IMG/VR virus record: IMGVR_UViG_3300019132_000039
Direction: 5' to 3' (one strand)
DNA length: 64,000 bases
DNA from: an uncultured virus (IMG/VR IMGVR_UViG_3300019132_000039)
Lineage: Duplodnaviria > Heunggongvirae > Uroviricota > Caudoviricetes
How positions within the stretch are numbered: the stretch's first letter is position 1; each line of letters starts with the position of its first letter. Position numbers and translations under genes: made by a program. The notes under the pieces are model-generated. The model searched no databases. It had not been told where the DNA came from and saw only the letters and a program-made list of their open reading frames with translations. This document shows positions 5,843-56,964 of this stretch, one piece after another.

Positions 5843-6177
5843 GTGAATACATGGAATTAGTGCACCAATACATGAGCACCTCTTTGTTTTTTCAATGCTG
5901 CTATGTTATTCAATTATGGAACGAACAAGGAATCAAAGCTACCCCTGAAATTGCTTCTTTTATCGAAAAAGAATGTGGAATCACACGTGATGTATTTAAG
6001 CAACAGATCTATCAAAGCGGATATTTATTTCCTAAAGACAATAATGAAGAAGCATGCAAACTAATTTTAGCTTACATTATTTATTGTATTGATTATCAAT
6101 GCTTTCAAGAGTTAGGGAAAACTTTTTCTTTATTAAAGAAAATATTTTATTGATAGGCATTACAAGTAATATATTGA

Positions 6178-6216
6178 TGTAATGCCTTGCATTTACCCCA
6201 AGTTTTATGATAAACT
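6178..6216 (+). promoter_or_regulatory. SigA-like promoter overlapped by a TGTAATGCATTACA-type operator
   Basis: TGTAATGCCTTGCA 6178-6191 overlaps TTGCAT (6187); TG-a-TAAACT at 6211; inverted half-site AGGCATTACA 6155-6164. Confidence 0.55.
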
Positions 6217-6259
6217 TGGGGAGAAGTGATACAGGGGAATAAAATAAAGGAGTCGAAGC

Positions 6260-6945
6260 ATGAAGAAGAAGACACGTACGATAACTCGCTTAATTCTAGC
6301 AGGAACGACGGTTTCTTCTATTGCTCTAGCCCTTCATTTTTATTCGTTCAAAAGTGACTTAAAACAGGTTCGTAAGTCTCACGAAAAGTTGAGCGAAAAG
6401 TACACAGAAGTGCTTGAAAAAAATGAAGACCTTTTTCAAGAAAATCAACAATTACATCAGGAAATGAAAAAGGTGAATGGTTTATTAGAGCAGTCTGAAA
6501 TGGAAATCGATCGACTAACTAAGGAGACTGAAGACCTCCGGAGAAGATTAGAGGTTTATAGGCAAAAGGTAGCTGAATTAGAAAAAAAGTTCAAAAGCAC
6601 CCCGTAGTTTTCCGTGGTCAACGAGAAGGGGAATGGATTTATTTTCGTTTAACCTTTTATGATAATAACTATCAGTCTACTGGAAAACGTCCAGGCGATC
6701 CGGGCTATGGCATTACTGCGAGTGGGCGACCTACTGAAGAAGGAGTTACAATTGCTGTAGATCCTAATATTATTCCGCTTGGTACGTGGGTGCTTATTAA
6801 ATGGCCGGATGGACGCACTGAAAAGCGTCGAGCAGATGATACAGGTCGCTTGATCAAAGGGTATGATATCGACTATTACGTACCTCATGCTCATGTTTCA
6901 ATGGGGGATGTAATGGTGCAAGTCAAAATTCTGGATAAGAAATAA
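6260..6945 (+). CDS. Membrane-anchored coiled-coil protein joined by a probable -1 frameshift to a 3D (Asp-Asp-Asp) cell-wall domain
   Basis: Frame 0 ends at TAG 6607; A_AAA_AAG at 6583-6589; the -1 frame from 6589 to TAA 6945 encodes GITASG...TIAVDPNIIPLGT...ADDTGRLIKGYDIDYY, a 3D-domain signature. Confidence 0.75.
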
Positions 6946-6959
6946 AAGGAGTTGGAGAC

Positions 6960-7226
6960 ATGGTTGTTTTAGGGGAAAGAGATGATGATTTTTTTGATTT
7001 TCGTGATCAAGTGTTTGGTGAATCGGCCAGAGATAGTATTCCATTTTCGCCCCAAGAAGAGGCGGTTTTAAATCGAGATAGCGAAATTCACACTTCTTAT
7101 ATCTTGGTTAATGCCTTATTAAATTTATTGATTCGAAAAGGTATTATTTATCCTCATGAAGTAAAAGCCCTCGTTGCAGAATTGCATGCAGAATATATAA
7201 AAAAGCGAGGGAAAACCCATGAGTAA
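6960..7226 (+). CDS. Hypothetical protein
   Basis: 88-aa ORF with RBS, overlapping the next gene. Confidence 0.65.
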   Translation: MVVLGERDDDFFDFRDQVFGESARDSIPFSPQEEAVLNRDSEIHTSYILVNALLNLLIRKGIIYPHEVKALVAELHAEYIKKRGKTHE

Positions 7227-7599
7227 ATTAAACATTCAACAAAAGCTGAGTAAATTTAAGAAACATGTTACACATTTTTCAGAACAACTAAAGTATCAAG
7301 TTGTGCAAGAACAGGAAGTGATCGTAGGAGGTACAATTCTGAACATAGTTCCTCCGGTTGACGAAGAATTTCCTATGTATATTGTCATTTTAGATGACTT
7401 AGTGGGTCAAACTCATGTGTTTGTGACAGAAGAAATCATGAACACCTTTATGGATCAATTTCAAATTGGTCAGGATGTATTTATCGAAGGGTTTGTTAAT
7501 ATTATTAGCCGACGTATTCAAGGAAAAGAGAAAAGAGATGTGTCGGTTTTTGCATATGATGTAAAAGATTTTAGGAAGAATGGAGACAACATTTCATGA
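7219..7599 (+). CDS. Stand-alone OB-fold protein resembling the DnaE C-terminal OB domain
   Basis: VGGTI...MYIVILDDLVGQTHVFV...GQDVFIEG resembles the DnaE OB pattern. Confidence 0.5.
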   Translation: MSKLNIQQKLSKFKKHVTHFSEQLKYQVVQEQEVIVGGTILNIVPPVDEEFPMYIVILDDLVGQTHVFVTEEIMNTFMDQFQIGQDVFIEGFVNIISRRIQGKEKRDVSVFAYDVKDFRKNGDNIS

Positions 7600-7777
7600 G
7601 AAATGTGTTAGTTTTCCCAGATAAAAGTGAGCATGATTTTATGTATCCTGTCAACCGAGATATTCATATAGGAGAAAGGTTGCAGGTACAGTTTCAAGAT
7701 CATACTGTTCATGTTTTGGTAGTCACAGATATCAAGAAAACTGACAAAGTGATTTATTATTATTTATCTTTTTCAGC

Positions 7778-7800
7778 CCCTCCGGGACATTAAGTGAAAA
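7778..7800 (+). promoter_or_regulatory. CCCTCCGGG-N8-BGRAAA element, copy 3
   Basis: ccctccggg acattaag tgaaaa upstream of ssb. Confidence 0.75.
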
Positions 7801-7829
7801 ATAATTTTTTATTTTAGGAGGTATATGAC

Positions 7830-8582
7830 ATGAATAACTACGGTCAACCTTATGGAAATCAGTCTTATGGAAATCAGTCTTATGGAAATCAAGGGTACTC
7901 AAATCAAGGGTATCCAAATCAAGGCGGCTATCCGATGGATCAGCAATCTAATGGTCAACGTAATGGCTCTGGATTTGATAATTATGCCAAAATCAAAGTC
8001 ATTGGACGTTTAACCCAGGATCCAACTTCAAAAATAGTAAACAATTCAAAAGTGGGTACATCTAAGATCGCAATTAATCATCGTAGCGAAAAAGCAGGAA
8101 CTGATTTTTGGTTTATTGAAGTATGGGGCAACGAAGGAGCCGATAGTAAATATAATTTCTTGATTAATCATTGTCCGAAAGGTCGTCGAGTGTTCGTAGA
8201 AGGAATCCCTGAACTTCGCCAACAAAAGAATCAAGATGGTTCTTATAGTTATTATCCAACTATTAAAGTTACTGAGCTTGTAGGATTAGAAATGCCAAAA
8301 GGCAGTGAAGGAGCACAACAACAACCAACAGGACAGTATCAAGGTGGATTCCAAGCACCGCCACAAGGTAATTTCAATCCATCTCCACAACAGCAACAGG
8401 GAGGATTTACACCACCTCCGGCTCCACCACAAGGAGGAGGATTCCCGCCAAATCCGGCGCAATCAAATACACCTCCTGCTCCGCAAGGAGGATTTCCACC
8501 TAACCCACCAGGTGGCGGTTATGGAGCTCCAGTAGGTGCACCAAATGGCGGATTTCCGCCAGCCCCACCACAAGGAGCTTAA
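7830..8582 (+). CDS. ssb: Single-stranded DNA-binding protein with low-complexity N- and C-termini
   Basis: IGRLTQDP...TDFWFIEVWG...KGRRVFVEG SSB core; YGNQS repeats at the N-terminus; P/G/Q-rich tail. Confidence 0.85.
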   Translation: MNNYGQPYGNQSYGNQSYGNQGYSNQGYPNQGGYPMDQQSNGQRNGSGFDNYAKIKVIGRLTQDPTSKIVNNSKVGTSKIAINHRSEKAGTDFWFIEVWGNEGADSKYNFLINHCPKGRRVFVEGIPELRQQKNQDGSYSYYPTIKVTELVGLEMPKGSEGAQQQPTGQYQGGFQAPPQGNFNPSPQQQQGGFTPPPAPPQGGGFPPNPAQSNTPPAPQGGFPPNPPGGGYGAPVGAPNGGFPPAPPQGA

Positions 8583-9076: not shown

Positions 9077-10232
9077 TAAACAAGCAACAAGCACAACTGA
9101 AACTTCATCAACAGGAATGGCTAGTAATGCCGATTTAATTGCCATGATTAATAAGCGAATGGGAGAAGGTTCTATTTATACATTTGAAGGAGAAGAGACT
9201 GTTAAGGTCCAGCCTGTATCTACGGGAATCCCTTCCTTAGATTTCGCTTTAGGAATTGGCGGCCTTCCGTGGGGACGATTGGTAGAAATCTATGGACCAG
9301 AATCCTCTGGAAAAACAACGGTAGCTTTAAAAACGGTTGCTACATTTCAGTATTATGCAAAACAACCGGGTCATCCATTTTACGGCAAAAAAGCGGTTTT
9401 CATTGATGCGGAACATGCCTTAGACCCATTCCATGCAAAAGCTCTTGGAGTGGATATTTCAAAAGAAACAGGTATGCTAATTGCACAACCAAACTGTGGC
9501 GAAGAAGGCTATGACTTAATGGAAACACTGATTCTTTCTAATCAAGTGGGCTTGATTGTTGGTGATAGTTTACCATCATTCATTCCTAAAGCTGTTATTG
9601 ATGGATCTGCAGAAGATAATCATATTGGATTACAAGCTCGCTTAAATTCTAAGTGTTTGCCAAAGATAGCACAATTGGCTTACAAACATAATTGTTTAGT
9701 CATTATGATTAACCAGATTCGAGAAAAAGTCGGCGTAATGTATGGGAATCCAGAGACTACACCGGGTGGCCGTGCATTGAAGTTTTATTCTTCTGTTCGT
9801 TTGGATGTGCGTCGAAAAGAAATCAAAAAAGGAGATGCCTTTATTGGCCAAACGATCACAATTAGTGTGAAAAAGAATAAGGTATCTCGTCCGTTCACTC
9901 AAGCGGAATTTGATTATTATTGGGATACAGGAATTGATGTTATTAAAGATATTATGAATGTAGCTATGGATATGGATATTATTAAACGTGCAGGAGCATG
10001 GTATTACTTAGGAGAAGATGTCAAAAATCCATACAAAGATGCTTCAGGAAATGAACTTAAATGGATGGGGAAAGACACCGTTGAAGCGGTTTTAAAACAA
10101 TCCCCGGCTCTATTTAACTATATTAATGATATTGTACAGGGTCGTATTCCAAAAGATGCTCAATTCGTGGTTGAGCAAGATGATTCTCAAGAAGAACTAG
10201 ACTCAGAATATCATGAAAATACGTTAGTCTAA
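9054..10232 (+). CDS. recA: Recombinase RecA
   Basis: GRLVEIYGPESSGKTT, FIDAEHALDP, INQIREKVGVMYGNPETTPGGRALKFYSSVRL, KNKV. Confidence 0.95.
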   Translation: MTRKKKDDKQATSTTETSSTGMASNADLIAMINKRMGEGSIYTFEGEETVKVQPVSTGIPSLDFALGIGGLPWGRLVEIYGPESSGKTTVALKTVATFQYYAKQPGHPFYGKKAVFIDAEHALDPFHAKALGVDISKETGMLIAQPNCGEEGYDLMETLILSNQVGLIVGDSLPSFIPKAVIDGSAEDNHIGLQARLNSKCLPKIAQLAYKHNCLVIMINQIREKVGVMYGNPETTPGGRALKFYSSVRLDVRRKEIKKGDAFIGQTITISVKKNKVSRPFTQAEFDYYWDTGIDVIKDIMNVAMDMDIIKRAGAWYYLGEDVKNPYKDASGNELKWMGKDTVEAVLKQSPALFNYINDIVQGRIPKDAQFVVEQDDSQEELDSEYHENTLV

Positions 10233-10270
10233 AGGGAGCTTTTTGCTCCCTTATGTGAGGAGGGGTCAAG

Positions 10271-10885
10271 ATGTCAGTAATCGAGAAAAACCTGCCCTTT
10301 GATTTGGAAACCGATCTATTTCGGAAAACGGCTCTTGAGCCAGGATTTTATGATCAAATTCTTGATAAAGAACATATGTACAAAACTGTAACACCACATC
10401 ATATTAAAACAAGCATTCACCAATGCTTTGCTTGCAATAATAGACGATATGTTAAACCATTAGAATTAAGCAACTTTGATGCGTCTGTCATGATTATTGG
10501 AGAAACACCCAGTGATATCGATTTCCAAACCAAAGAAGGTAAGCTGCTGGCTGATACATTGATATGGGCAAAGTTTTCATTAGATGATGTGTATTTTACA
10601 TCTTTAATCAAATGTGAAGAAAGTTCAACTCCTGAACGCTGTCAACATCATTTGTTATCGGAAATTTTATGTGTGCAACCACAAATGATTATTGCATTAG
10701 GCTATGATGTTGGTAAACACTTTGATCCTTCTATCAATTGTGCAGGTTATACATCTGTCCTTCTCGATCGGTATGAAATGATTACGACGTATCGAACGTT
10801 GTATACTATGAGCAGTCAAGAATGGTTTCAAGAGTATTGTCATCATATGTTACGAGCAAAGCAGAAGGTGGAGAGTAAACTGTAA
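10271..10885 (+). CDS. Uracil-DNA glycosylase family 4-like protein, degenerate active site
   Basis: CxxC, VMIIGETP, VYFTSLIKC, EILCVQPQMIIALG. Confidence 0.7.
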   Translation: MSVIEKNLPFDLETDLFRKTALEPGFYDQILDKEHMYKTVTPHHIKTSIHQCFACNNRRYVKPLELSNFDASVMIIGETPSDIDFQTKEGKLLADTLIWAKFSLDDVYFTSLIKCEESSTPERCQHHLLSEILCVQPQMIIALGYDVGKHFDPSINCAGYTSVLLDRYEMITTYRTLYTMSSQEWFQEYCHHMLRAKQKVESKL

Positions 10886-11182: not shown

Positions 11183-11227
11183 AATATGCCTCTAATACCA
11201 AATTTATCATAAATTTTGTCGGTGAAT

Positions 11228-11400
11228 GTCGAAATTTGCGAAATATGATAGGCTATCAAACTATTGACACTTATTACCGAACAGAGTATATTAATACCAG
11301 AACAGTTGATGGGAACATACGTTCTGTCGATTAACGTCGAAATTTGCGAAATATAGTTTATCCTTGAAATATTGACACTTATTGCTGAAAAGGGTATATT
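11228..11400 (+). promoter_or_regulatory. Tandem duplicated SigA promoters (108-bp period)
   Basis: TTGACA-17-TATATT at 11264/11287 and 11372/11395, each preceded by GTCGAAATTTGCGAAATAT (11228, 11336). Confidence 0.85.
11313..11324. promoter_or_regulatory. LexA (Cheo/SOS) box
   Basis: GAAC-ATAC-GTTC matches the Gram-positive GAAC-N4-GTTC box, about 20 nt downstream of the first -10. Confidence 0.7.
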
Positions 11401-11494
11401 TAAACAAGTAGGCAGGAATAAAGTCCTATAAATCGCAGGATTTTAAAGGAATTTAAAGTAAAATATACCTAATTGTCGAAAATCCTTGATAAAC

Positions 11495-26344: not shown

Positions 26345-26560
26345 ATGCAAAAGACAGAGGTTAAATTCACGATTAAACCAGGTGGCGAAATTAAGCTTGA
26401 TGTATTAAATGGCCAGGGTGAATCTTGTGTAGTAGCTACTCAAGAATTAGAGGTATCTTTAGCCAATGCCGGGTCTAAGAAGACTGATGAAGGTAAGAAA
26501 CCAGAATATTATGATGGCGGCAACACAACAGTCTTTAGTGATTTAACAGGAGGCTATTAA
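26345..26560 (+). CDS. DUF2997-like protein
   Basis: FTIKPGG...GQGESCVVATQELE...KPEYY. Confidence 0.75.
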   Translation: MQKTEVKFTIKPGGEIKLDVLNGQGESCVVATQELEVSLANAGSKKTDEGKKPEYYDGGNTTVFSDLTGGY

Positions 26561-26753: not shown

Positions 26754-26871
26754 GGGAAGGAGATGTTGTCACCCTTCCCCATCAGCAGAGGAGGGATTCC
26801 CCCTTTATGTCATGTGCTTAGATTTCCGCTTATTTTTCCCTCTTCTGTTGATGGGGGAGATGTGACTCCCC
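26754..26871 (+). ncRNA. Structured intergenic RNA element 1
   Basis: 23-bp stem 26774-26796/26837-26859 whose only non-Watson-Crick pairs are G.U on the + strand. Confidence 0.6.
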
Positions 26872-26904
26872 TTATTACATATATCATTAAGGAGGAATCG
26901 GAAA

Positions 26905-27324
26905 ATGATTGTAGGTAAAAGTGCTGTACGAGAATTATGTAATGAAATTGATAAAGTGATTCGTGAAATTGACCAGATCACGCAATCCAAGATTGACCGT
27001 ACATCTGACAAAATTGATGCGGAGTTGAACTCTTGTGGCCGTGAATTAACGAATGCTCAAAATACATTAGGTCAGATCAAGCCGCTTGTGGACCGATTGG
27101 TACAACAAATTGGAACCAATGCGCCGGATCATGTGCAAGTATTGGTTAGCTCGATTGCAACAGAAATTATGTCCAAGGTGACAGGAGCCATGAGCAATCT
27201 ACAGGAAGTGCAAAAAAATATTAAAGATGTAGACAAATACACAGATGAAATTGACCGCTTAACGGATGAAATTGATGCACTAACTAATAAAATTGATGAA
27301 ATTACAGACAAATATCAAAAGTAA
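26905..27324 (+). CDS. Heptad-repeat coiled-coil protein
   Basis: TDEID repeats, strong RBS. Confidence 0.75.
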   Translation: MIVGKSAVRELCNEIDKVIREIDQITQSKIDRTSDKIDAELNSCGRELTNAQNTLGQIKPLVDRLVQQIGTNAPDHVQVLVSSIATEIMSKVTGAMSNLQEVQKNIKDVDKYTDEIDRLTDEIDALTNKIDEITDKYQK

Positions 27325-27337
27325 TGAGGTGAAAGCA

Positions 27338-27679
27338 ATGTCTTATACATCCAATTCATCTCCAAACTATATGTCTTCTGATTGGGGAAATGCAAAAACG
27401 AAAGAAACCGCATTAAAAATTGACCATATTGCAGATAAAGCGAAATTTGCTATTGAAATGCTTGAGTCTGCATTAAGAGGCTTTGATTCTATTGAAAAAG
27501 AAATTATGGAAGCCTCTCAATCTACAAATCCACCATCTCGTGAAACATTGCGTGCATTTGCATATCGAATTGATGCATGCCAAAACCAAGTGCAAGATGG
27601 GTTAGTACGATTAAAACAAATGATGACGGATATTGATGAAGTCACAGACCGGATTCAATCTACGAAAACCACTTGGTAA
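27338..27679 (+). CDS. Coiled-coil hypothetical protein
   Basis: GAGGTG RBS before ATG 27338. Confidence 0.7.
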   Translation: MSYTSNSSPNYMSSDWGNAKTKETALKIDHIADKAKFAIEMLESALRGFDSIEKEIMEASQSTNPPSRETLRAFAYRIDACQNQVQDGLVRLKQMMTDIDEVTDRIQSTKTTW

Positions 27680-27685
27680 TATACA

Positions 27686-27808
27686 GTCGGAGGTAGGAGA
27701 TGTTCTCCTGCTTCCTAGTAAGCGGAGGATCCATTGTTCATGTCCTATGCCCCTTTTTATATAGATATACCTCATTTTCCCTCCGCTTACTAGGGAGCCA
27801 TTCCCGAT
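27686..27808 (+). ncRNA. Structured intergenic RNA element 2
   Basis: 19-bp stem 27710-27728/27780-27798; competing hairpin 27689-27715. Confidence 0.6.
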
Positions 27809-27847
27809 ACAAGTGAAGAATACAAGTAAAGGGAGGAGAAAAAAGAT

Positions 27848-28396
27848 ATGCCTAAAGTATTATTACAAGTTCAAAATAAGCATCAACAAGCATTATTAGA
27901 AGTAGAACAAGCCACCTCTCCACAGATTGACAGAATGATTGATGGCCTATTTCATTTCTTTTCAATTTCAGTAACACCGAAAGAAATGAAAATTGAACAT
28001 GCCATATCAGAAGAAAAAACGCCAACTGTAACTCATGTAACCAACAATGTTGTTATTACGAAGGAACCTTCTTCAATGGAAGAAGCATTGGAGGAGATAG
28101 AGAAAAAAGAACAAGAGATTCCTTCTTATTATAACACGGGCATTAAAGTGAAAAATGGCATTAATCATTACAGATGCCGTTATCGTTGTCCTAAATGCAA
28201 TAATACAGGAAACCATTACATTCCAGAAGGAGTAAAAATGGTAGATTGCCATGAATGTCAAACTACCATGCTTGTAAAGAAAGCTACACCAGGAACACAA
28301 GGTATTCAGCCAGATCGTTTTAAAAACTGGTTTGTAGCTGGTGAGCAACTTCCGGTAGAAGAATTTGTATACGGGAAAGCAATTTCCGTACAGTAA
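27848..28396 (+). CDS. Zn-ribbon protein
   Basis: YRCRYRCPKC...CHEC. Confidence 0.75.
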   Translation: MPKVLLQVQNKHQQALLEVEQATSPQIDRMIDGLFHFFSISVTPKEMKIEHAISEEKTPTVTHVTNNVVITKEPSSMEEALEEIEKKEQEIPSYYNTGIKVKNGINHYRCRYRCPKCNNTGNHYIPEGVKMVDCHECQTTMLVKKATPGTQGIQPDRFKNWFVAGEQLPVEEFVYGKAISVQ

Positions 28397-28429
28397 TTTT
28401 GTTTTCATCGCTTTCATATCATAAAACAC

Positions 28430-28566
28430 TGGCGAGTGCAGGAGGGAGTCGCTCGCCCGTCATCATGTGAAACCGAGGTTTGATATGCGTAATACAACAA
28501 ATCTATAAAAAGGAGGGTAGACACACCTCGACCACCTTTTCTCGGTTTCAGGTGATGGCGTTGCCA
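28430..28566 (+). ncRNA. Structured intergenic RNA element 3
   Basis: 21-bp stem 28458-28478/28540-28560; 5' hairpin 28431-28457. Confidence 0.6.
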
Positions 28567-28590: not shown

Positions 28591-30192
28591 ATGTCTAAGC
28601 TAATAAAAGAAATAAAGGATGATTTCCATGAAGAAAATCAAACAAACTCCAAAAAGAATAGGAATCGGAAGCAAGACCGCCTTGAAGGGTCTGAAAAAGA
28701 ATCCGAAACTGGCCAAAGTGGTGAAGGGGTTTCCCCGAACGAACACCAAATAAAAGAAGTTGATATTTCTCCCTATGTCACTAACGTGGATGGACCTGTT
28801 TATGCAATTGTCGGATTGCCAGAAGAGTTCATTGCAACCCTATTTGCCTGGGTATCACGTTCTCCCAAGTCGTTTAAACAACATCTTCAAATCGCCCTCA
28901 AGGACCACGACATTAGAGGACGCATTGAATCCTTCAAAGAACTCGATGAAAAGGCAAGAAAGTTTCACGAAAAGTGGACTGTGGGCTATGGTCATTCTTC
29001 TGTTGCTGAACATGCTGTGGCTCATGTGGGGATTGAAAGCATTTCTCGATTGGCTTCTGCAGAACTAGAGCTCGCCAATTCTTTCTTATCTATTACGGAA
29101 TATAGTCAGCGTTACCAAAAACCTGAACGTGGTCAATGGCATAATCCTATTGATAAAGAAAGTGAAAATATTCGTATAACAGTAGAAGAATTTTTTCATA
29201 AAGCGTTTGATGCATTTGAGCAGTTAATTAAGGGAGTATTTGAGTATCTCAAGAAAACATATCCAGAAGAAAAGGATTCAGTATTAGAAAAATTGGCTTT
29301 TGAAGATGCTCGTTATGTTTTGCCGCTTTCAATGTATACTCAACTTGGTATGACGGCCAATGGTCGAGCATGGCGAGATGCACTCGCAGTATTAGGTAAT
29401 TCAAAACACAAGGAATCTCAAAAACTAGCTGAAGATATTCGAACTGAGATTTCAAAGGTGTTACCAGTATTATTGAAATACGCTACACCTTCGCAATATC
29501 AGCGAAATTCCAAAAAACGAATGGAAACTCATTTTACAGAAAGAAACACAATAACCGCTTCATCTAAATCAGCGGTTTTAAGCAGTGTCAAAATGGAAAG
29601 TGAAATCATTGCGCATATTATTGCTTTATTGTTGATGAAACATGAAGATTTGCCGTATAAGGCAGCTTATTACAAAGCCAAGTGTTTAGGAAAAGAAAAA
29701 CAAGAACAAATCATCAAAGATTTGTTGTTTGAAATGCAGCACTTTGATATGGCACCAGAAGAATTTAAACATGTCCAATATCAGGTCGAATTTTTTGTAT
29801 CTGAAGCTAACTGGCATCAGTTATTAAGACATAATCGGAAAACAGATTTTGTCTTTTCCAATCCAACACCACATTTCGGAATTACCATTCCACCAAGAAT
29901 TAAAGAAGCTGGATTAGAGAATCTCTTGAAAGACATTGCTGAACAATCTAAAGAATTGTATAATTTACTAGTGGAAGCAGGTTTTTCTAATGAAGCCGAA
30001 TATGTGGTGTTAAATGCACATCGTCGTCATATATTTGCTAGTTTTGATTTATGGGAAGCTTATCATTTGATCAATCTTCGCACATCCGAAGAAGCACAAT
30101 GGGATATTCGGGAAACGTTTGAAGAGTTGTATCGTCAATTATCCCAAGTACATCCATTATTAATTAGTCAGGCGAAACGTCGTTTATCGTAA
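28591..30192 (+). CDS. thyX: FAD-dependent thymidylate synthase, tandem-domain type
   Basis: GYGHSSVAEH, ISRLA, EYSQRY, EDARYVLP; second repeat QLLRHNR...LRTSEEAQWDIR. Confidence 0.88.
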   Translation: MSKLIKEIKDDFHEENQTNSKKNRNRKQDRLEGSEKESETGQSGEGVSPNEHQIKEVDISPYVTNVDGPVYAIVGLPEEFIATLFAWVSRSPKSFKQHLQIALKDHDIRGRIESFKELDEKARKFHEKWTVGYGHSSVAEHAVAHVGIESISRLASAELELANSFLSITEYSQRYQKPERGQWHNPIDKESENIRITVEEFFHKAFDAFEQLIKGVFEYLKKTYPEEKDSVLEKLAFEDARYVLPLSMYTQLGMTANGRAWRDALAVLGNSKHKESQKLAEDIRTEISKVLPVLLKYATPSQYQRNSKKRMETHFTERNTITASSKSAVLSSVKMESEIIAHIIALLLMKHEDLPYKAAYYKAKCLGKEKQEQIIKDLLFEMQHFDMAPEEFKHVQYQVEFFVSEANWHQLLRHNRKTDFVFSNPTPHFGITIPPRIKEAGLENLLKDIAEQSKELYNLLVEAGFSNEAEYVVLNAHRRHIFASFDLWEAYHLINLRTSEEAQWDIRETFEELYRQLSQVHPLLISQAKRRLS

Positions 30193-30231
30193 TCGGATAA
30201 TAAACCACCTCCTTGAAGGGAGGTGATAAAA

Positions 30232-30426: not shown

Positions 30427-31110
30427 GATCACTCTGATAAAAGCAGACATGTTTCTCATGTCTGCTTTTTTATGCACAAAAAAGGAGGGATTATGATGAA
30501 AGTGGATATTCCTGCTAAGGATTTCTATCCTTTTGCATTGAAGAAAATGCGTCAGCTACAAGAAGAATTGGAATATCATGAAAATCAAATCCAAAATATT
30601 ATAAATCGTTATGAAGACCGATTAAAACAGTATCAAAACACTAATTGGTTATTGAGATTGTTTAAATCAAAACCTCAACATCCGGGGGAAGGCCTTTTCA
30701 CTGATTATGATTTTCATCATTTGAAAAAGCGTCATTTGGAAGAAGAAATACAAGAAATTCATCAAATCTTATTGGTTATTGATCAAGCGCAGATAGTTCA
30801 GTTGAGCAATAGAGATATTGTGTATTATGGAATTCAATCTAAAGGGGGGACTCCAAATGCCTAAAAAAGCGGTGTTGGTTACACTTGAAACCATGGTCCG
30901 AGTAGTGGTTGATCTTCCAGAAGGAGTAGAGCCTGATAGTGATGAGGCCTTTGATGTAGTATCTAAAGCAGCCATTGAAAATATTCGTAGTGCTGTGTAT
31001 GAAACTCCTGATTACCCTTATCCAGAAAATATTACAGAAATTACTGAAGATCTTGAAATTCCTTATGGAGAAGCACCAGAAGATCAATAAAAAGGGAGGA
31101 GAAATCGGAT

Positions 31111-33573
31111 ATGTCTACATTAAATTTATGGGAAGTATCAAATATGCTTAATGAACTTAATCCAGAACAACGAGAAGCGGCTACGACGATTAATGGTCAG
31201 GTTCTTGTTTTAGCGGGAGCCGGGTCCGGTAAAACAAAAACCTTAACAGTTCGAATTGCTAATATGCTATCGCAAGGAATTCAAGCAAAAAATATCTTTT
31301 GTGCTACATTTACCAATAAAGCTGCTCGGGAAATGAAAGAACGTTTAGAAAAAGTAGTGGGCGAAGAACCGATGAAGCACATTTGGATGGGTACATTTCA
31401 TAGCTTATGTGTACGCATTTTACGCAAACACGGTCATTTATTAGGATATGAGCAAGATGAAAAAAACAAACGATGCAAGTTTGTTATTTATGATACAGGC
31501 GATGTTTTGCAAGTCATTGAGCGTATTTATAAGCAAATGGGGATTCAAGACAAATACAAGCCTGGGTATGCACTCAGCTATATAGATAATGCCAAAAACA
31601 ATCTATGGGATCCAGAATACTGTACATACCACGTAGCTGAAACAGCTGATGAGCAAGTCATGGCACAAGTGTATATGCATTATCAATTCCAAATGAAGCA
31701 AATGAACGCAATGGATTTTGGCGATCTCATTATGAATACAGTGATTTTGCTTCGTGATTATCCGGAAGCTCGTGATTATTGGCAAGGAAAATTTCAATAT
31801 GTCATGAGTGATGAGTATCAAGATGCCAACTATGCACAATTTCAATTATTATTATTACTTGCTGCGCCGCAATACAATTTGTTTGTCGTGGGTTAATTGT
31901 TAGCTCACGTTAAATCCGGTGAACCTGTACTTGCAGGGTGTGACGTGAGAAGGACACGTTGCTAACGGGGGAAGTGACTCGGTAACGAGAGACAATCCCG
32001 TGCCAAGCCTCATATGAGGAAGGTGTAACGACCATCCCGAAAGGGAGTAGGGTGCAGGTGAAACTCCTACAACCGAAGCGCCGGACCTCTTGAAAGAGAG
32101 TGAAGATATGGTCTCGTCTGCTATGAGAATAGCAGAGAGAATTTCTCGTATTTCCTTTGAAGGTAAATGGTTACATCCTTGTATATGTATTCAAAGATGC
32201 GCTTTACCTGTTGTTTACCGCCATACCGCAATGTAATGGCGTTTCATTGCTTCTTGTTTGGTGGATAACCAACCCATATTTATCAACTTCCTTCCTGTAA
32301 TAGCCTGTTATGGTTATTACAATGTAGTTGGTAATTATGGTCAAAGTGTATATGCGATGAAATTCCAAGATTTACGGACGATTATCAAGCCATTTATGGT
32401 TTCCGTGGTTCTGATATTAATATTATTCTGAATTTTGAGCGGTATTTTCCACAAGCTACTGTTGTGAAACTAGAACAAAATTATCGTTCTGTTCGCAATA
32501 TTGTTCATGCAGGAAATGAAATAGTAAAATACAATAAACACCAAAAAGAAAAGACATTACGAACACCAAGAGAGCCAGGAGAAACCATTAAAGTCATTGG
32601 TTGTGGAAATGAATATCAAGAAGCCGCTTATATTGCAGCCATGATTAAAAAGAAGGTTCTTCAAGATGGATACAAATATGAGGATTTTGCCATTTTATAT
32701 CGTGGAAATGCCCAGTCTCGAGTCATTGAAGACTTCTTCCGTAATCAATTTATTCCATATCAAGTCATTGGTGGTCACGGTTTTTATGATCGGGAAGAGA
32801 TTAAAGATGCCATTGCGTATCTAAGATCGATTTTTAATCGAAAAGATGATACAGCTATTTTGCGTATTCTGAATAAGCCATCTCGTGGAATTGGTAAGAC
32901 CTCTCAAGATAAAATTGAAGAATACGCACATATTCATAAAGTCAGTGTGTATCGAGCTTTAAAAAATGCTAGTGACATTCCAAGTATCAATAAACGTTCA
33001 CTTAGCAAAATTACAGCATTTATCGATTTGCTCGATCACTTTGAAAAGAAATTAGAAAGCGGCTTACTAATGTCCACTTATGTTCGTTATGTATTAGAAC
33101 AATCAGGTCTTTGGGCGTATTATGAAAACGACAAGAAAGCAGATGAGAAAATTGACAATCTAAAAGAGTTTCTTATTCTTGTCGATAAATATGAAACAGA
33201 AAATCCAGATAAAACCTTAGAAGATTTCTTACAAGACATTTCATTAGTGACAGATTCTGAAAACAATAAGAAAACAGACTCTGTTCGTTTGATGACGATG
33301 CATGCTTCAAAAGGATTAGAATTCCCAGTAGTATTTCTCATCGGTTGGAATGAAGGCATATTTCCTTCTTGGAGAAGTCAAAGTGAAAAAGATATCGAAG
33401 AAGAACGTCGTTTGGCTTATGTTGGTATTACCCGTGCAGAAAAAGAATTATTGATCACATGGGCAGAACAAAGATCACAACAAGACGGAAAATCTCGTAT
33501 CTATAAACCTTCTCGATTTTTAGACGAATTGCCTTCTGAAGTGGTAGAATCTACCGTAATTTCTTTTTCTTAA
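31111..33573 (+). CDS. pcrA: PcrA/UvrD SF1A helicase, spliced (exons 31111-31893 and 32377-33573, about 659 aa)
   Basis: AGAGSGKT, TFTNKAA, DEYQD; the exon join restores VVG-DDYQAIYGFRGSD; LEQNYRS, TMHASKGLEF, EEERRLAYVGITRA. Confidence 0.92.
31894..32376 (+). ncRNA. Group I intron in pcrA (483 nt)
   Basis: Exon ends in U, intron ends in G; P1 CGUGGGU/GCUCACG with U.G; P10 UAAUUGUU/GACGAUUA; P7 GACCA(32030)/UGGUC. Confidence 0.93.
32121..32277 (-). pseudogene. Internally deleted antisense LAGLIDADG endonuclease remnant
   Basis: RBS+ATG (MGWLSTKQEAMKR) joined out of frame to LRYGGKQQVKRIFEYIYKDVTIYLQRKYEKF, which resembles the C-terminus of the 41067 endonuclease. Confidence 0.7.
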
Positions 33574-40018: not shown

Positions 40019-43000
40019 ATGCCACGCCTTTATATGCCGGAAATATATACATTAGAAATGTATAACCGTCATTCTTCAAGCGGCATAGCCTATTGTGATC
40101 TACTTGTGACAGATAGCGATAATGTCATCTATTTAGCCAATTTGATTGGTGTGGATTCCAAAGTAAAGCAAGCCGCATGGCTTATGCAAGATGGAAAAAC
40201 GGGACAAATTTATCGTGCTGAAGGAAATCGATACGAAACAGGATTTATTCGTCATAGTGTTTTTGCTATTCCTACGTCTAAAAAGCCGTATGATGAAGAG
40301 GTATTAAAAGTTGATGATTTAACTCATATTTTGATGGTGGCCAAAAATGCAAAACCAGATTTAAAAGCACGTAATCAATGGTTAGCAGAACAAAGAGAAC
40401 GAATCAATCAAGGTCTAGATCCAGAATCTATTCCAAGCCATTTAGCTGAACTCATTTTGGCATGGGATGGTAATTACAAAAAACAAGTGTTTCATGTTCT
40501 GAATGACCGATATAATACACCAATGCTAGAGGAATGGACTGATTATATTGTCGAACGACTAGAAGAGGAAGGTTATTATACACCTCTTACCGTGAAGTGT
40601 TTTGGTTCCAATTATTCTCTAGAAGCAGGACTTCTTATGATTACAGAAGAACAGCTAGAAAACATTATCTCAGAAGGAGTTCAAGGATATGAGTTAAACT
40701 TTGCAATTGAAGAAGATGGCCGAGATGAAAGTCAATCCATATTACCTCATTGTCAGACGATTGATGATTATTTAACTCACTTTGCACCAGAGCTAGGAAA
40801 ACGTATCCAAGAGAATATTGCTGTTCGTTTTGATCCGGAGAAAGAACGACATCATCCCGCTTTTCGTGATGTGAATTTATGTGCCAATCAGCAAGGAATT
40901 ACAGGTCTATATCCACCGCAAGCCAATACTGTTATGGGTGTTTCTAAAACATTGGTGGAAGATGATTTTTGTTTTATCGTTGGAGAAATGGGTTAACAAA
41001 CAGGTCGTAATGCATTTCATAGCATGTTATTATGGGTATAGGAAATATACCTATGGGAGTGATAACATGTATGAAATGGCAAAGCAAATGTTTTTGGAAG
41101 GTAAATCGTTGAGAAAGATTTCAGAGCTCACAGGTTTTGACCGCAAGAAATTATCCCAAATGTTAAAAGCAGATGGGATACAGATAAAATCCAGAGGGAT
41201 GACAACAGGAAGAAGTAAATACAATCACAACACCGATGCGTTTAAAGTAATCGATACCGAGGAAAAAGCATATTGGTTAGGCTTCTTATATGCCGATGGC
41301 TCAGTTTATGAACCACGGGGAACATTGGAACTAAGCTTATCTGAAAAAGATGTTAATCATCTTGAGCGATTTCGAGATTTTATCTCTCCTGAAATGGACA
41401 TCAAACCAAGAAACGTGAATGGTCATCTATGCTATCGATTACAACTCGTATCGATGGAAATTGTACAGGATTTAATTGATAAAGGCTGTACGCCTGCCAA
41501 ATCATTGACCTTGCAATTCCCAACAGAAGAGCAAGTGCCACATCATTTATTGCATCATTTTATGAGAGGATATTTCGATGGAGATGGAAGCATTCATTAC
41601 TTCTATGATCCGAGAGATAATTCCAGACCTCAAGTGAATATAGAAGTGATTGGTACAAAAGAATTCCTAGATGCTTATTCCAAAGTTCTACATGAACACG
41701 GATTGCCACTAAGAGAAAAATACAAAGAGAATGGAAGAGCATTTGGTTATCGATTCGGTGGAAATGGATTGTATGCGAAATTTGTAAATTTCCTCTACAA
41801 CAATGCAACGATTTATCTGGAACGAAAACATTATCCTGTAGCCCATGTAAAATCGGGTGAATTGCTGGAAACCTAAGTCCGAAAGGATATGGCAATCAGC
41901 AGCCAAGCCTAGCGAATGGCACTTGAGTAGCTAGGAAGGTTCAACGACTAACGGGTGAGGATGCCGACCAATAAACCCGACACGAGCGCCCGACACGATG
42001 AAGGCTGTCTCCGAGCCTGAGTGATGATATAGTCTCGTCCTCTCCGAAAGGGGAGTGGTTGGGTTAAATTCCCGACCTAGAAGGTATCGACAGGTAAAAC
42101 CACAATGGGTGAAGTAGTTCCATACATCACAGAAGCAATGCTGCAAAACGTAGAAACCAATCCTCAACCACAGCGGGTTATTGTCCTGTGTCCTTCCATT
42201 ATGGTAGAAAAATGGGCACGGGAAATTAAAGAACGAATACCGAATGTAGAAACACATATTATTCAACATTGGTTAGACGTAAAACGAATCCAGGAACAAA
42301 ACCAATACATGGATGCAAAAGGAAAAATAAAATACAAGAAACCGGAGAAATGGGAATATTACATCATGAGCTCTGAGTTGTCCAAGTTTACTTATCCGAT
42401 GGAGCCTATCAAAGATTGGCGTGTTCATAAATCTGATATTACATTCCGTTCTGTAGAGGACGTAGAACCTGAACAAATTCGACATGTTCGACGAGGAGAT
42501 GGCATGCATCAAGTTGTTCATCCTGAGTATCGTGTTCGCATGATTCGAAACGAAGTCTGGAATTATGAGAGCGGAAGACCTGATGTGTTTTATTCGGTAG
42601 GCGAAACCAGTTTTTATTGTCCAAAGTGTGGGAATCCATTATTCGAACGTGGCGGTGAATATGCAGAAGAACATTTCTTTGAAACTTACAACAAGTCATC
42701 AAAGAACTGGGTAAAGAATATGACCAAAGAAAATTATCGCTGCCGAAACAAAGTTCCAACTTCTCTTTTACCAAAAGAGGAAATTAAGGAATGGAAGTTG
42801 GATTACAATAGTAATCGTTGGGTGCCGGCAGATGAGGAACAAGAATGCGGATATGTATTATGGCAGCCAGAAAAACTTCCACTGGATTCTGGATATCGAA
42901 AAGTATCTCCAGCTTGGTATATCAATAAGAAATTACCAAGAGGATTCTTTAAATACCTAATTGCTGATGAAGTTCATGAGTACAAAAGTGGAGATTCTAC

Positions 43001-44597: not shown

Positions 44598-46669
44598 ATG
44601 ATGAAATACTGTTCAAAATACCGTTGCGGTCGTGTATTACCAGAAAACTTTGAAGGAACAGAATGTCTGTATTGCGGAGCCAGTGATAAATATGCCTACC
44701 TGGACTCACATCGTTACATTAATTCACTGCCGTTAGAAGCTTTTGAAATTGAACAAAAATGCAGAAAATGCGGTTCTACCGAGGAATTATGTTATCATGA
44801 AAAACATGATTATGGTTCTTTTCAAACAGGGAATTATTATGAATGCCGTTCCTGTCGAGATGCCTTTTACGCTGAGATGGATCGAGAGGAAGCGATGCAC
44901 TATATTGTCATCAATAATTATAGTGATGAGATAGAGTTTTATGCAGACAAACATGAATTGGAACAAGAGTTAGACGAAATTTCAAGTGATTGGGACTATG
45001 AAAATCTAGAAAATATTGATGAACACCTCATCATTTTAAAAGTGGAAAAAATCGAAGGGTATCCAGAGCTACGTGATTTCCAAAATCGCAATGTTTTTTA
45101 TTACAATGATGTATTTTATCGAGTGGAAGAAGTTATTCAGCCATATTTTGAGAGTGATAGCAGCTGTACCATCAACTGGTGATTCGAAAGGAAGGAAAGT
45201 ATGATTGATTCAACCATTCAAGAAATCAAACAACACCCAAAATACATTGTATTAAAAACAGAAGATGTAGAGAAATACGGTTGGGAAACACAGAAGATGT
45301 ATTTACGTGATTTATGCGAGGAAATCAACAAAGGTCGCATAGAAGAAGGAAAAAAACTGAATAGCTATATTGTAATTAACATGGATGAGCCTTATATCAA
45401 TGAAGTCATTGAAATATTAAAACGTCATGGACATTGGGAGGGATAATCATGACTACACAAATTATTCGTCATGACCGAGGATTAGATGCAAAACGTATTG
45501 AGAAACTGATTGATATGATTGAGGGTAAAATCAATGATATTCTCTATGACCGACGAGATGTATTAGCACAGCGAAAGGAAGAGCTCAAACAAGAGTTTAT
45601 TGTTCAAAATAATTTGCAGCCTCATTTTAATGCCATTAAAGATATTGACCAACAAATCAGGGAATTAGAAAAACAAATCAGACATCTTGAAAATCAAAAA
45701 GAACCTCATAAAATCGCTATTTCTAAACTCTTTAGAGGCTGTGAAGATACTTTTCAATATCAGAGAATATCTGAAGGTTCACCGGCTGATGAATACATTA
45801 AATCCCGAATTTTTCAATATCAGAGAATATCTGAAGGTTCACCGGCTGATGAATACATTAAATCCCGAATTTTAAATATTGATGAGATAAAAAATGAACT
45901 AAAACAGCTAAAAGAAGAAATGGAAGAAAAATTGTGGTTGGCTAAAGATATTGATGAAGCTCGTTCTCTTTATTATTATGCAACTAGCCGGATTCAAGAG
46001 CTTACGGGAGGGATATAAATTATGCTGAGGAAGTGTTTCGGGAAGTAGTTCTTTGTGATGATCTTGATCAAATCGAAGAACTCCCCAATGGTATTTACTA
46101 TCTTTTATTTGAAACAGGTTGTTACACATATTCCACCCCAGAAGGAACCGAAGGTGATGTAGACACAGATTTAAAAGTGTATCCTTTTGTTCCTTTGCGG
46201 GAATTTTTAAAGCATAAAAAACAGTTGTTGGAGAAACCTGAACCAGAAGCAGAAGAATTATTCGATTTATATCTCTACATACAACAAACTAAGCCACACT
46301 CCATCCAACACGATGATGATGATTTAGATTCATGGGAATAGGAATATACATTAAAACCGTAAATATGAAAATCATGAAGGGTGTGAGATGGCTATTATGA
46401 AGCAAATTTATGAATGTTTAACTCGAGCTTTTGAAGGTAAACTTCCCCTTCCGAGTAAAAAATGGAAGGGGATTATTACTACGAATTGTGAAGGACATGA
46501 CATTTTAGCATTATACTGCAGTTACAATTTGATTCTCCTTTATGACATTACTTCCCATGAGTATATATACGAATGGACAAAAAGAGGATGTCATTTCCGA
46601 GGATTACAAAGCGCAAAAGAGTGGTTAGAAGAACGCAAGAGAAAACAGCAAGAAATCTCTTGCAAATAG
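44598..46669 (+). other. Hypothetical ORFs (44598-45182 Zn-finger, 45201-45446, 45449-46018, 46033-46341, 46388-46669)
   Basis: Packed ORFs with RBS. Confidence 0.6.
45751..45870 (+). repeat. Perfect in-frame 60-bp tandem duplication
   Basis: 45751-45810 = 45811-45870 (FQYQRISEGSPADEYIKSRI x2). Confidence 0.95.
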
Positions 46670-52934: not shown

Positions 52935-53590
52935 GTTTGAAGAAAGAAAAGTGGAAACGCTTTTGAAATATGGTTGTCCGAAAGAGGACTTGTGGCTTAC
53001 AGAATGTACAACAACGAAATCAGCTTATCATTTATATGGCAATATTGTTTTAGAGCTGAATCCTAAAGATAAGCCATATTGTGTGTATTATCATGAAAGC
53101 GGCGAGATTCATGCATTTGCTGCATTTGAAACAGAAAAAGAATTTCAGGAAGCCTGTCAATATATTGCTAATTACTTAAAACCATAAAGGAGGATTAACT
53201 ATGGGGAAATATTACATCACTAAATATTATATTTCATATGATTCAGCAGAAGTAGAGGCTGATTCGGTCGATGAAGCCATCAATAAGCTTTTAGATGGAG
53301 ACTATGAGCTTGTTGGCCCAGATGGTATTCTAGAGCATTACAATTTAATAGGTATATCCTTTGATGATCTTCGAGCTAAAGGAGTAACAGAAAAGACAAT
53401 CGAACGAATTATGATTGAATACAATGATGAGGAAGCCAATAATAAGGGCTACTTTGGTGGCATTGGTGATATCACCTAACAAGCAGGAAAAGGCTTGTAT
53501 AATTTAGAAAAAATATATAATATGATAAGTAATAATGCGGATAAAGGGGGAATATATATGTTCCAACAAGTTTTAATATTGGAGGATGAA

Positions 53591-53701
53591 ATGAAAAAAG
53601 GAACTAGCAAATCCAATGAAAAGGATGCGAAACTCCAAAAAATTGCCGCCAAAGTCATCCGCAGAAATTACAAAGGGTTAAAGAGGTTGAGTAAAAATTG
53701 A
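53591..53701 (+). CDS. Small Phd-like antitoxin (probable)
   Basis: 36 aa, KVIRRNYKGLKRLS tail, overlaps the doc-like start. Confidence 0.6.
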   Translation: MKKGTSKSNEKDAKLQKIAAKVIRRNYKGLKRLSKN

Positions 53702-54288
53702 ACATTGAATCTTTAGAGCCCAAACATATTCGAATGTTTCATGACATGGCTCTACAAGAGTTTGGTGGGTTGCCTGGTGAGTATGAACCAGGTCTTATTG
53801 ATAGTCTGGCATATAAACCGTTTCAAACTTATGATTTTGGTGGGCATACGTATGAACCATATCCAGGTTTATTTACCAAAGCTGCAGTATATATGCATAC
53901 TCTAGCCACAAGTCAGTACTTTGTGGATGGAAACAAACGTACAGCATATATTACTGCAGCCACTTTTTTGGAATTTAACGGATATGTGGTCGTAATATCA
54001 GATTGGGAATTATACTTTGTTTCAAAATTGGTTGCAAATAAAAAGTGGAGTCTGGAAAAATTGGCTGATTGGTTAGAAAGAAACAGCGTTCCTGAATCTC
54101 AATATATAGAAGGAATGGAACCAAGCAAGGAAACCTTGATACCATTGTATAAAGAATACATAGACTTGTTAAATGAATTAGAGATTCAGGAAATTTTAAC
54201 AGAAAAAGAAATGGAAGAACGAAAAGAACTCCAAAAATTATTGGACGATATGCAAAAAGGATACAAAAAGGATAAAGGAGTAAAATGA
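53698..54288 (+). CDS. Doc/Fic-family toxin
   Basis: FGGLPG, KAA.Y, QYFVDGNKRTA, FLEFNG. Confidence 0.85.
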   Translation: MNIESLEPKHIRMFHDMALQEFGGLPGEYEPGLIDSLAYKPFQTYDFGGHTYEPYPGLFTKAAVYMHTLATSQYFVDGNKRTAYITAATFLEFNGYVVVISDWELYFVSKLVANKKWSLEKLADWLERNSVPESQYIEGMEPSKETLIPLYKEYIDLLNELEIQEILTEKEMEERKELQKLLDDMQKGYKKDKGVK

Positions 54289-56724: not shown

Positions 56725-56964
56725 TGCAGATTTTTCAGTCGTTCCCCGCAGATTTTTCATCCTTTCCCTGAAAAAATTACACCCCCGTAAAATTTTCACC
56801 CTCCCCTCTTGTGTATAAATCCCCCTGCAAATTTTTCACCCCCTAAATATCCCCCTGTAAAATTTTCACCCCCTAGATATCCCCCTGCAATTTTTTCACC
56901 CGGTTTCCCCCCTGTAAAATTTTCATCCCCTTTTATACACATATCCACAGATTTTTGTGGATAG
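56725..56964. repeat. Replication origin: about 8 iterons plus DnaA boxes
   Basis: CCC(C/T)GYAAAWTTTTCAYCC repeats (30-bp period at 56821/56851/56881); DnaA-like boxes at 56810, 56933, 56941, 56956. Confidence 0.8.

Follow-up and report, generated by a model that had tools for sequence, protein, structure and literature searches.

Conserved intergenic hairpins with predicted anti-ribosome-binding-site loops in an uncultured tailed phage and its plasmid relatives

Introduction

The early mRNA of phage T7 has ribonuclease III (RNase III) sites as intergenic stems in a polycistronic transcript, and to our knowledge these sites and those of phage SP82 are short-loop hairpins without a role in trans. 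Here we describe three intergenic RNA elements, E1, E2 and E3, in a 64,000-nt stretch of DNA (the window) from an uncultured Caudoviricetes virus (IMG/VR IMGVR_UViG_3300019132_000039), all of which sit between a DUF2997 gene (26345) and the thymidylate synthase gene thy1 (28591). They resemble the RNase III sites of SP82 early mRNA, which are intergenic stems in a polycistronic early transcript (PMC4838370; papers given by PMC number are cited for the parts of them that were available). They also resemble the C-rich-region small RNAs (sRNAs) of Firmicutes, such as RoxS, FsrA and CsfG of B. subtilis, in which an open C-rich stretch pairs with G-rich targets and one RNA has several targets (PMC8216469). 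Among phage RNAs, DicF of the Qin prophage is an operon-derived sRNA that blocks translation in trans, and the c4 antisense RNA of phages P1 and P7 carries pairing sequences in its loops that block the ribosome-binding site (RBS) of the phage's own mRNA (both PMC12197685, which cites a work whose title concerns RNase III/E processing of DicF). In the available part of that review of phage sRNAs the words 'Bacillus' and 'Gram-positive' do not occur. GOLLD, ROOL and the long non-coding RNAs of phage K are comparable in that they are non-coding RNAs of Firmicutes phages and adjoin genes for tRNAs or tRNA-like RNAs (PMC9241854).

The feature that the loops of our elements chiefly share is complementarity to translation-initiation regions, which is absent from an earlier note on this DNA, and we consider this predicted anti-RBS character well supported by the loop sequences. 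No description of the elements was found in the literature within our search scope, outside which most subscription papers and supplements fell; PMC11526630, examined as a possible description, concerns a different phage group in the part available.

Results

Each spacer is predicted to fold on the + strand into a 5' hairpin followed by a long helix (Table 1). The earlier note had given all three spacers a helix of 19-23 bp, which holds for E1 (23 bp), E2 (19 bp) and E3 (9+10 bp on either side of a single G.G mismatch). It had also held that the primary sequences otherwise differ. By sequence, E1 and E2 are related copies of one element, with 38 nt at 74% identity and a single covariance model that fits both, and only E3 is a separate family. 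The motif that it had reported as common to E1 and E2, AGGAGATGTT, is indeed present in both, at 26758-26767 and 27695-27704. Its proposal that the 5' hairpins exclude the helix stands in part: in E1 and E2 the two structures overlap, and the hairpin is predicted to form first and then to be displaced or trimmed, but only the bottom ~6 bp are shared. A 6-bp core of the E2 hairpin survives alongside the long helix, and the hairpin and helix of E3 share no positions.

Both families recur in relatives of the phage. Five B. subtilis-group plasmids, one B. thuringiensis plasmid, G002 and G003 carry an E1/E2-type element immediately downstream of DUF2997 or of the genes that follow it, and an E3-type element lies directly before thy1, or one short open reading frame (ORF) earlier, in all seven aligned replicons besides the window. 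In a MAFFT alignment of nine E1/E2 sequences, 13 of 19 pairs have changes in both partners, with 97.1% of cells paired; for the E3 family (eight sequences) the figures are 12 of 18 and 97.2%. None of 500 shuffles equals this level of pairing and covariation in either family, and slid registers reach at most 62%. Close B. subtilis-group plasmids supply four rows of each alignment, and the cell counts therefore overstate the number of independent events (L074, near-identical to L073, was omitted from alignments A4 and A5, and L073 is absent from the upstream ORF test below). Departures from Watson-Crick pairing number 31 G.U against 2 A.C among 315 cells, which indicates a + strand RNA. The view of the earlier note that near-exclusive G.U deviations imply selection at the RNA level is supported by these counts and by the compensatory pairs in homologs.

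The folds are stronger on the + strand (z of -4.5, -5.2 and -4.5 for E1, E2 and E3) than on the - strand (-2.9, -2.6 and -2.7). A genome-wide scan of G000 returned E1 and E2 as the sole perfect + strand helices of at least 17 bp; under a looser filter (at least 17 bp, loop of at least 20 nt, no GC filter) the window has two helices, a count reached in 1 of 40 shuffled windows. A blastn comparison of the elements with G000 yielded short matches only. Neither family matches any Rfam entry: the Rfam 15 covariance models, a comparison that the earlier note had proposed, gave no match at E <= 1 on 26754-28566, with RoxS/RsaE, FsrA, c4, GOLLD, ROOL, riboswitches and ribozymes among the models. Five relative loci matched just tRNA, a group I intron and one marginal CRISPR repeat. 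Our own covariance models, R1 and R2, recovered only their training copies from 65 sources (1.2 Mb), a fourth hairpin of B. licheniformis reaching E 0.61, and neither model matched the Paenibacillus-like and Alicyclobacillus-like relatives searched.

The anti-RBS character appears when the loops are set against same-length sense intergenic windows, whose mean pyrimidine content is 0.45-0.48. Nine of the ten loops of E1, E2 and a further hairpin, E4, fall within the top 2.2% of these controls for pyrimidine, opposing the strand bias, and seven of the ten fall within the top 5% for pairing to the consensus Shine-Dalgarno (SD) sequence. The E2 loop passes on both measures and the E1 loop on pyrimidine only. 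Several loops, read in reverse, give an SD, a spacer and a start codon. Five E3 loops are of ordinary composition, yet keep a CACCCCU-like motif, and are borderline as anti-SD sequences.

E4 lies outside the window, between tRNA genes and the parM terminator, and has a counterpart in all seven complete replicons examined (at the same place in W01-W03, G002, G003 and G498). Its build is similar to that of the E1-E3 stems, 7 of its 25 pairs are compensatory (four sequences), and its loop is pyrimidine-rich and complementary to AGGAGATGT, a motif that the earlier note saw in E1 and E2, as well as to the SD variant of two helix-turn-helix regulator genes. The tRNA cluster upstream of E4 holds additional anti-SD hairpins.

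Table 1. Coordinates of the elements, flanking genes and candidate targets (window positions unless stated)
Feature	Position	Strand	Details
DUF2997 gene	26345..26560	+	conserved left anchor of interval
E1 5' hairpin	26754..26779	+	3' arm doubles as base of long helix; co-transcriptional folds
E1 long helix	26774..26859	+	26774-26796 with 26837-26859, 23 bp, 3 G.U; predicted RNase III-type duplex
E1 loop	26797..26836	+	40 nt, 75% pyrimidine
E1 upstream ORF MSCA	26807..26821	+	start position kept in homologs, peptide not
Two-gene cargo	26905..27679	+	139 and ~113 aa, between E1 and E2
E2 5' hairpin	27689..27715	+	overlaps helix base
E2 long helix	27710..27798	+	27710-27728 with 27780-27798, 19 bp, 1 G.U; family of E1
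E2 loop	27729..27779	+	51 nt
E2 upstream ORF MSYAPFYIDIPHFPSAY	27740..27793	+	peptide not conserved
182-aa cargo gene	27848..28396	+	phrog_19181, between E2 and E3
E3 5' hairpin	28431..28457	+	compatible with long helix
E3 long helix	28458..28560	+	28458-28477 with 28541-28560, 9+10 bp around one G.G mismatch
E3 upstream ORF MRNTTNL	starts 28485	+	
E3 apical motif CACACCTC	28522..28529	+	conserved, C-rich (CACCCCT in homologs), anti-SD-like; alignment
thy1	28591..30192	+	FAD-dependent thymidylate synthase, conserved right anchor
Candidate target, ssb gene (7830)	7818..7837	+	SD to codon 3
Weaker candidate target, uvrD leader	31087..31113	+	10-nt perfect match to E2 inner loop
E4 hairpin	G001:C1:23614-23677 (L086)		outside window; 21-bp stem, U-rich loop with ACAUCUCCU

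To rank possible targets, we used RNAduplex, a nearest-neighbour scan and cofolding to score each loop against every start region predicted on the replicon that carries it (195-274 genes). For the B. thuringiensis loop the leaders of uvrD, ssb and a 91-aa gene rank 1, 2 and 3 of 274, the ssb leader with a 16-nt plus a 9-nt match, and the best score is equalled by 0 of 24, 0 of 20 and 1 of 20 shuffles. For the E1 loop of the window, a 73-aa gene (L085:9281-9499:-) ranks 1 and an 84-aa gene (L085:8853-9104:-) ranks 1-5 by method; the two are adjacent early genes outside the window. The 73-aa gene is the ortholog of the B. thuringiensis 91-aa gene (reciprocal best match, E 3e-4) and so recurs as a predicted target in two lineages (ranks 1 and 3) with differing loop sequences, and the 84-aa gene recurs in two lineages as well (ranks 3-5 and 1), its ortholog ranking 1 for the B. 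halotolerans loop. Two segments of E2, 27734-27744 and 27765-27773, with hairpin 27745-27764 looped out, could pair 20 contiguous nt over the SD and start codon of ssb at -24.2 kcal/mol (an alternative pairing to the same target gives -25.4). Across methods ssb ranks 4-7 for the E2 loop and first or second for the fourth-type loop of G003, so that it recurs in three lineages (ranks 4, 2 and 1), again with differing loop sequences. The rank of uvrD for the window loops ranges from 7 to 99 by method, and the B. thuringiensis copy has the uvrD ortholog as its highest-ranking target. A first test of agreement across genomes, with five loops and dinucleotide-shuffled loops as the null, gave P 0.021-0.035 for K = 3-10, and a wider test of 13 loops from six lineages, in which the weak 73/91-aa ortholog link was lost, gave P 0.008 at K = 5.

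The window makes up the first part of a 122 kb contig and matches at 100% the loci retrieved from G001, an IMG/VR record of 215,870 nt with direct terminal repeats. The genes of G001 include those for terminase, portal, tail sheath and a ParM-like partition protein, and one for a 1159-aa RdRP-family protein that may be an RNA polymerase of the YonO type (described in PMC5467207). The thy1 gene of G001, used as query, retrieved eight plasmids of 200-260 kb from Bacillus and Paenibacillus and 12 IMG/VR loci, G001 itself counted, and had no match in GTDB genomes (0 of 104 and 0 of 401, one genome unscored). Because G001 carries virion and partition genes and its thy1 has matches on plasmids of 200-260 kb, the window and its relatives are likely a phage-plasmid family of the Bacillales.

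The interval between DUF2997 and thy1 ranges from <100 nt to ~5 kb among relatives. Non-coding RNAs occupy it in several of them, and in the window's version cargo genes intervene between the stems. On the B. thuringiensis plasmid it includes a 612-nt gene-free stretch (fold z -4.2) with no long match among the other plasmids or phages searched and a best Rfam E of 0.51, far below gathering; more structured RNA modules, also without an Rfam match, lie upstream of the E1-type stem there (L004 5198-5420). In G002, G003 and G498 the interval has tRNA-like RNAs bearing long inserts, as judged by eye. Such RNAs, at L141 ~6560-7830, L082 7288-7550 and L083 ~6090-6480, have tRNA ends and long inserts replacing the anticodon arm; L141 has several in a row, where ARAGORN calls one tRNA-Trp only and Rfam none. 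A second conserved stem, with an ACCC loop, comes after E1 in W01, W02, G002 and G003. The cargo at 26905-27679 is coiled-coil, its 139-aa protein being 55-86% identical across Paenibacillus, Thermoactinomycetaceae, clostridia and phage Eldridge. No stems were seen upstream of its homologs on Paenibacillus and clostridial chromosomes or in phage Eldridge among the matches listed, and we rejected the idea of an integron-like cassette since the cargo homologs listed show no stems.

Several other features of the window and its relatives deserve mention. A small repeated hairpin (4-bp stem, TCC loop, then ~GTGAAA) stands 26-60 nt before 6-12 early genes per replicon, in the window at 2876, 3344, 7776, 19380, 23340, 34693 and 46722, with more sites in G001 and W01-W03 and none found in G002. 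Its stems vary yet stay paired; its template strand, C-GGA-G, presumably resembles the hairpin promoters of N4, and it is a candidate promoter for the phage's own polymerase. Group I introns are present at 31884-32135 and 41761-42056 of the window and at L086 10459-10743, one splitting uvrD and one near the terminase gene. In a hairpin at 30206-30229, also found in W01 and W02, the SD of the 67-aa gene after thy1 pairs with an adjacent anti-SD. A 47-aa ORF followed by a Fic/DOC gene (53558-54288) is likely a phd-doc-type toxin-antitoxin pair, and five ~30-nt repeats at a strand switch (56774-56930) mark a possible origin. The window also has a perfect 60-nt tandem duplication (45751-45870), a promoter-like duplication with 108-nt spacing (11208-11408), and, at the end of recA (10210-10371), a weak match to the BsrG model (29 bits, gathering score 55) that is likely just a hairpin.

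Discussion

Having found that these hairpins carry loops suited to pairing with ribosome-binding regions, we ask what they might do. We tentatively propose, with slightly less than even confidence, that they are processed anti-RBS sRNAs acting in trans on phage early mRNAs. A long early transcript, suggested by the co-oriented genes, would carry E1-E3 on the + strand; host RNase III would cut the stems, whose duplex length points to this enzyme, and release an apical hairpin of 60-70 nt. The open pyrimidine-rich loops of the E1/E2 type would then reduce the translation of other mRNAs of the phage by pairing with their ribosome-binding regions, and the accumulating RNA would damp the early replication genes (ssb, uvrD and the 73-aa and 84-aa genes). 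The RNA island likely ends at E3, which might in addition mask the SD of thy1 in cis. No promoter of the elements' own was found: promoter-like sites within the upstream genes reach just 9/12 and are fewer in the region than in shuffles. A processed RNA would need neither promoter nor terminator of its own. RNase III requires a duplex of about two turns or less, and the stems, at 18-23 bp, 97% paired and covarying, provide a conserved duplex of adequate length; a G.U pair kept in seven of nine E1-type stems is at most compatible with its proximal and distal box preferences. The B. subtilis enzyme cleaves intramolecular duplexes closed over long loops (PMC11780869). Two candidates raised in the earlier note, an RNase III site and a new sRNA family, both fit 18-23 bp covarying stems that have no Rfam match.

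A number of observations weigh against action in trans. The E1 loop is only moderate in its pairing to the consensus SD (top 17%), and the E3 loops combine ordinary composition with the lack of a strong target of their own. Two E1 homologs have a loop of merely 4-5 nt, therefore the stem can persist without a pairing loop. The best target of the window's E1 loop is equalled by 8 of 24 and 6 of 20 shuffles and that of its E2 loop by 16 of 24 and 13 of 20, and for the B. licheniformis loop no own target stands out (the 84-aa gene ranks 40-57). The wider agreement test gave P 0.18 at K = 3 and 0.079 at K = 10, P 0.053-0.44 when the anti-SD core was kept, and P 0.09-0.26 for E1/E2 alone, and the agreement tests were devised post hoc, once the first matches were known. 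Because the window loops do not beat shuffles and the tests are post hoc, the named targets, ssb, uvrD and the 73-aa and 84-aa genes, are only suggestive candidates. A closed loop of 40-50 nt may be unable to form 20 contiguous bp. Finally, a ribosome-binding site is at least as direct an explanation for the SD and AUG kept at the stem top, which are discussed below.

The main rival, which we regard as doubtful, is that the stems are RNase III processing or stabilising sites only, at which the long early transcript is cut and the neighbouring tRNA-like RNAs are freed while the loops are discarded. This would account for a stem that stays constant while the loop ranges from 4 to 51 nt, for the way E1 and E3 border the non-coding island in relatives, and for the statistical weakness of the specific targets, and it has a precedent in the RNase III targets in SP82 early mRNA cited in PMC4838370. 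It leaves unexplained why loops in several lineages are pyrimidine-rich against the strand bias and complementary to the SD, why the fourth hairpin conserves ACAUCUCCU, and why the B. thuringiensis loop has three strong matches in its own genome. Another idea, which we hold with somewhat more doubt still, extends the trans-acting proposal to modular RNA silencing, in which constant RNase III stems, several per genome and derived from non-coding islands, would present exchangeable antisense loops, matched over time to the leaders of early genes in the same phage, much as miRNA hairpins bear guides.

Control of the next gene in cis seems improbable to us as the role of the elements. The C-rich loop of E3 could mask the SD of thy1 in a pseudoknot, and the 5' segment of E2 could do so for the SD of the 182-aa gene until RNase III cuts the RNA and frees it. 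The place of E3 in the seven aligned replicons, at thy1 or one short ORF away, speaks for this, as does a predicted energy of -12.8 kcal/mol between the E3 loop and the downstream SD region in the three B. subtilis-group plasmids tested; in the full E2 fold, CUCCU of the 5' hairpin can alternatively pair with the SD of the 27848 gene. But the E3-SD pairing reaches just -5.4 to -6.4 kcal/mol in the remaining four of the seven copies, the window among them, and what comes next downstream of E1 homologs in relatives is more non-coding RNA and no gene.

The earlier note had also listed, among its candidates, a ribosome-sensing attenuator. In such a switch a ribosome on the SD and AUG at the stem top would block the long helix, so that the helix forms, and is cut, only under poor translation. 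The translations that it gave for the three tiny upstream ORFs (uORFs; Table 1) are correct, and the combination of SD and start codon is kept at the stem top in all six long-loop E1-type copies tested, with 'ATGT' aligned. This, and a 5' hairpin that forms first and overlaps the helix base, are what such a switch would lead one to expect. The combination is lacking, however, in the two short-loop E1 homologs and in six of the seven E3 copies examined, so that the SD-plus-uORF arrangement holds for the E1 type but in one of seven E3 copies. The peptides (4, 17, 27, 15, at least 29 and 15 aa) suffer frameshifts between close plasmids, and no conserved leader peptide or sensing codons were found among the copies compared. 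A terminator scan gave no site at E1, E2 or E3, and the uORF SD of E1 and E2 is predicted to be largely base-paired already before synthesis of the 3' arm (unpaired ~0.2-0.4) and wholly so afterwards (0.0). With no terminator, unconserved peptides and an SD buried by the stem, ribosome sensing fits poorly, and we give it little credence. A type I toxin-antitoxin system finds no support either, as the ORFs on both strands differ between homologs and no membrane peptide is kept. Because the sequence CAUG is palindromic, a start codon and its antisense share bases in the window and B. thuringiensis copies, and we take the AUG at the loop top to belong to the pairing surface rather than to a functional uORF.

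We think it very improbable that the loops act as decoys for an RNA-binding protein, be it of host or phage, or have their partners among host mRNAs: C/U-rich loops do recur in several island modules, and our target ranking was confined to genes of the same replicon, but the B. licheniformis loop pattern (<=3 mismatches) occurs in 9 of 401 Bacillales genomes, in eight different genes, against five control matches, and the E2 loop pattern in 0 of 401, in searches that are blind to gapped pairing and in genomes outside which the true hosts may lie.

Returning to the proposal of anti-RBS sRNAs, a conserved family with predicted targets in its own genome resides on plasmids in strains of B. licheniformis and B. 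halotolerans that can be cultured, which makes it directly testable. If action in trans proves true, it would add an RNA layer to the shut-off of early genes in little-studied phage-plasmids of ~200 kb, and provide a natural, re-programmable antisense scaffold for Bacillus. If the silencing is modular as well, this layer would set when replication genes are shut off, or maintain the plasmid state. Should processing alone be true, the stems would form a family of RNase III sites that has escaped annotation, and their interest would be modest.

How, then, do the elements differ from the systems that they resemble? Unlike GOLLD and ROOL, whose models find no match here, they are short single-stem units. 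Unlike the RNase III sites of SP82 and T7, compared here by description and not by sequence, most of their loops are long and SD-complementary. Unlike c4, which has the single target ant and a role in immunity, and to whose family they show no match, they are proposed to act on several distant early genes. DicF is Hfq-dependent, enterobacterial and directed at host ftsZ, in contrast to our elements, for which the phage's own mRNAs are the proposed targets and which number three or four units per genome. And whereas RoxS, FsrA and CsfG are chromosomal sRNAs with short C-rich regions, the elements described here belong to phage operons and display a loop of 40-51 nt, variable between phages, on one stem of 19-23 bp.

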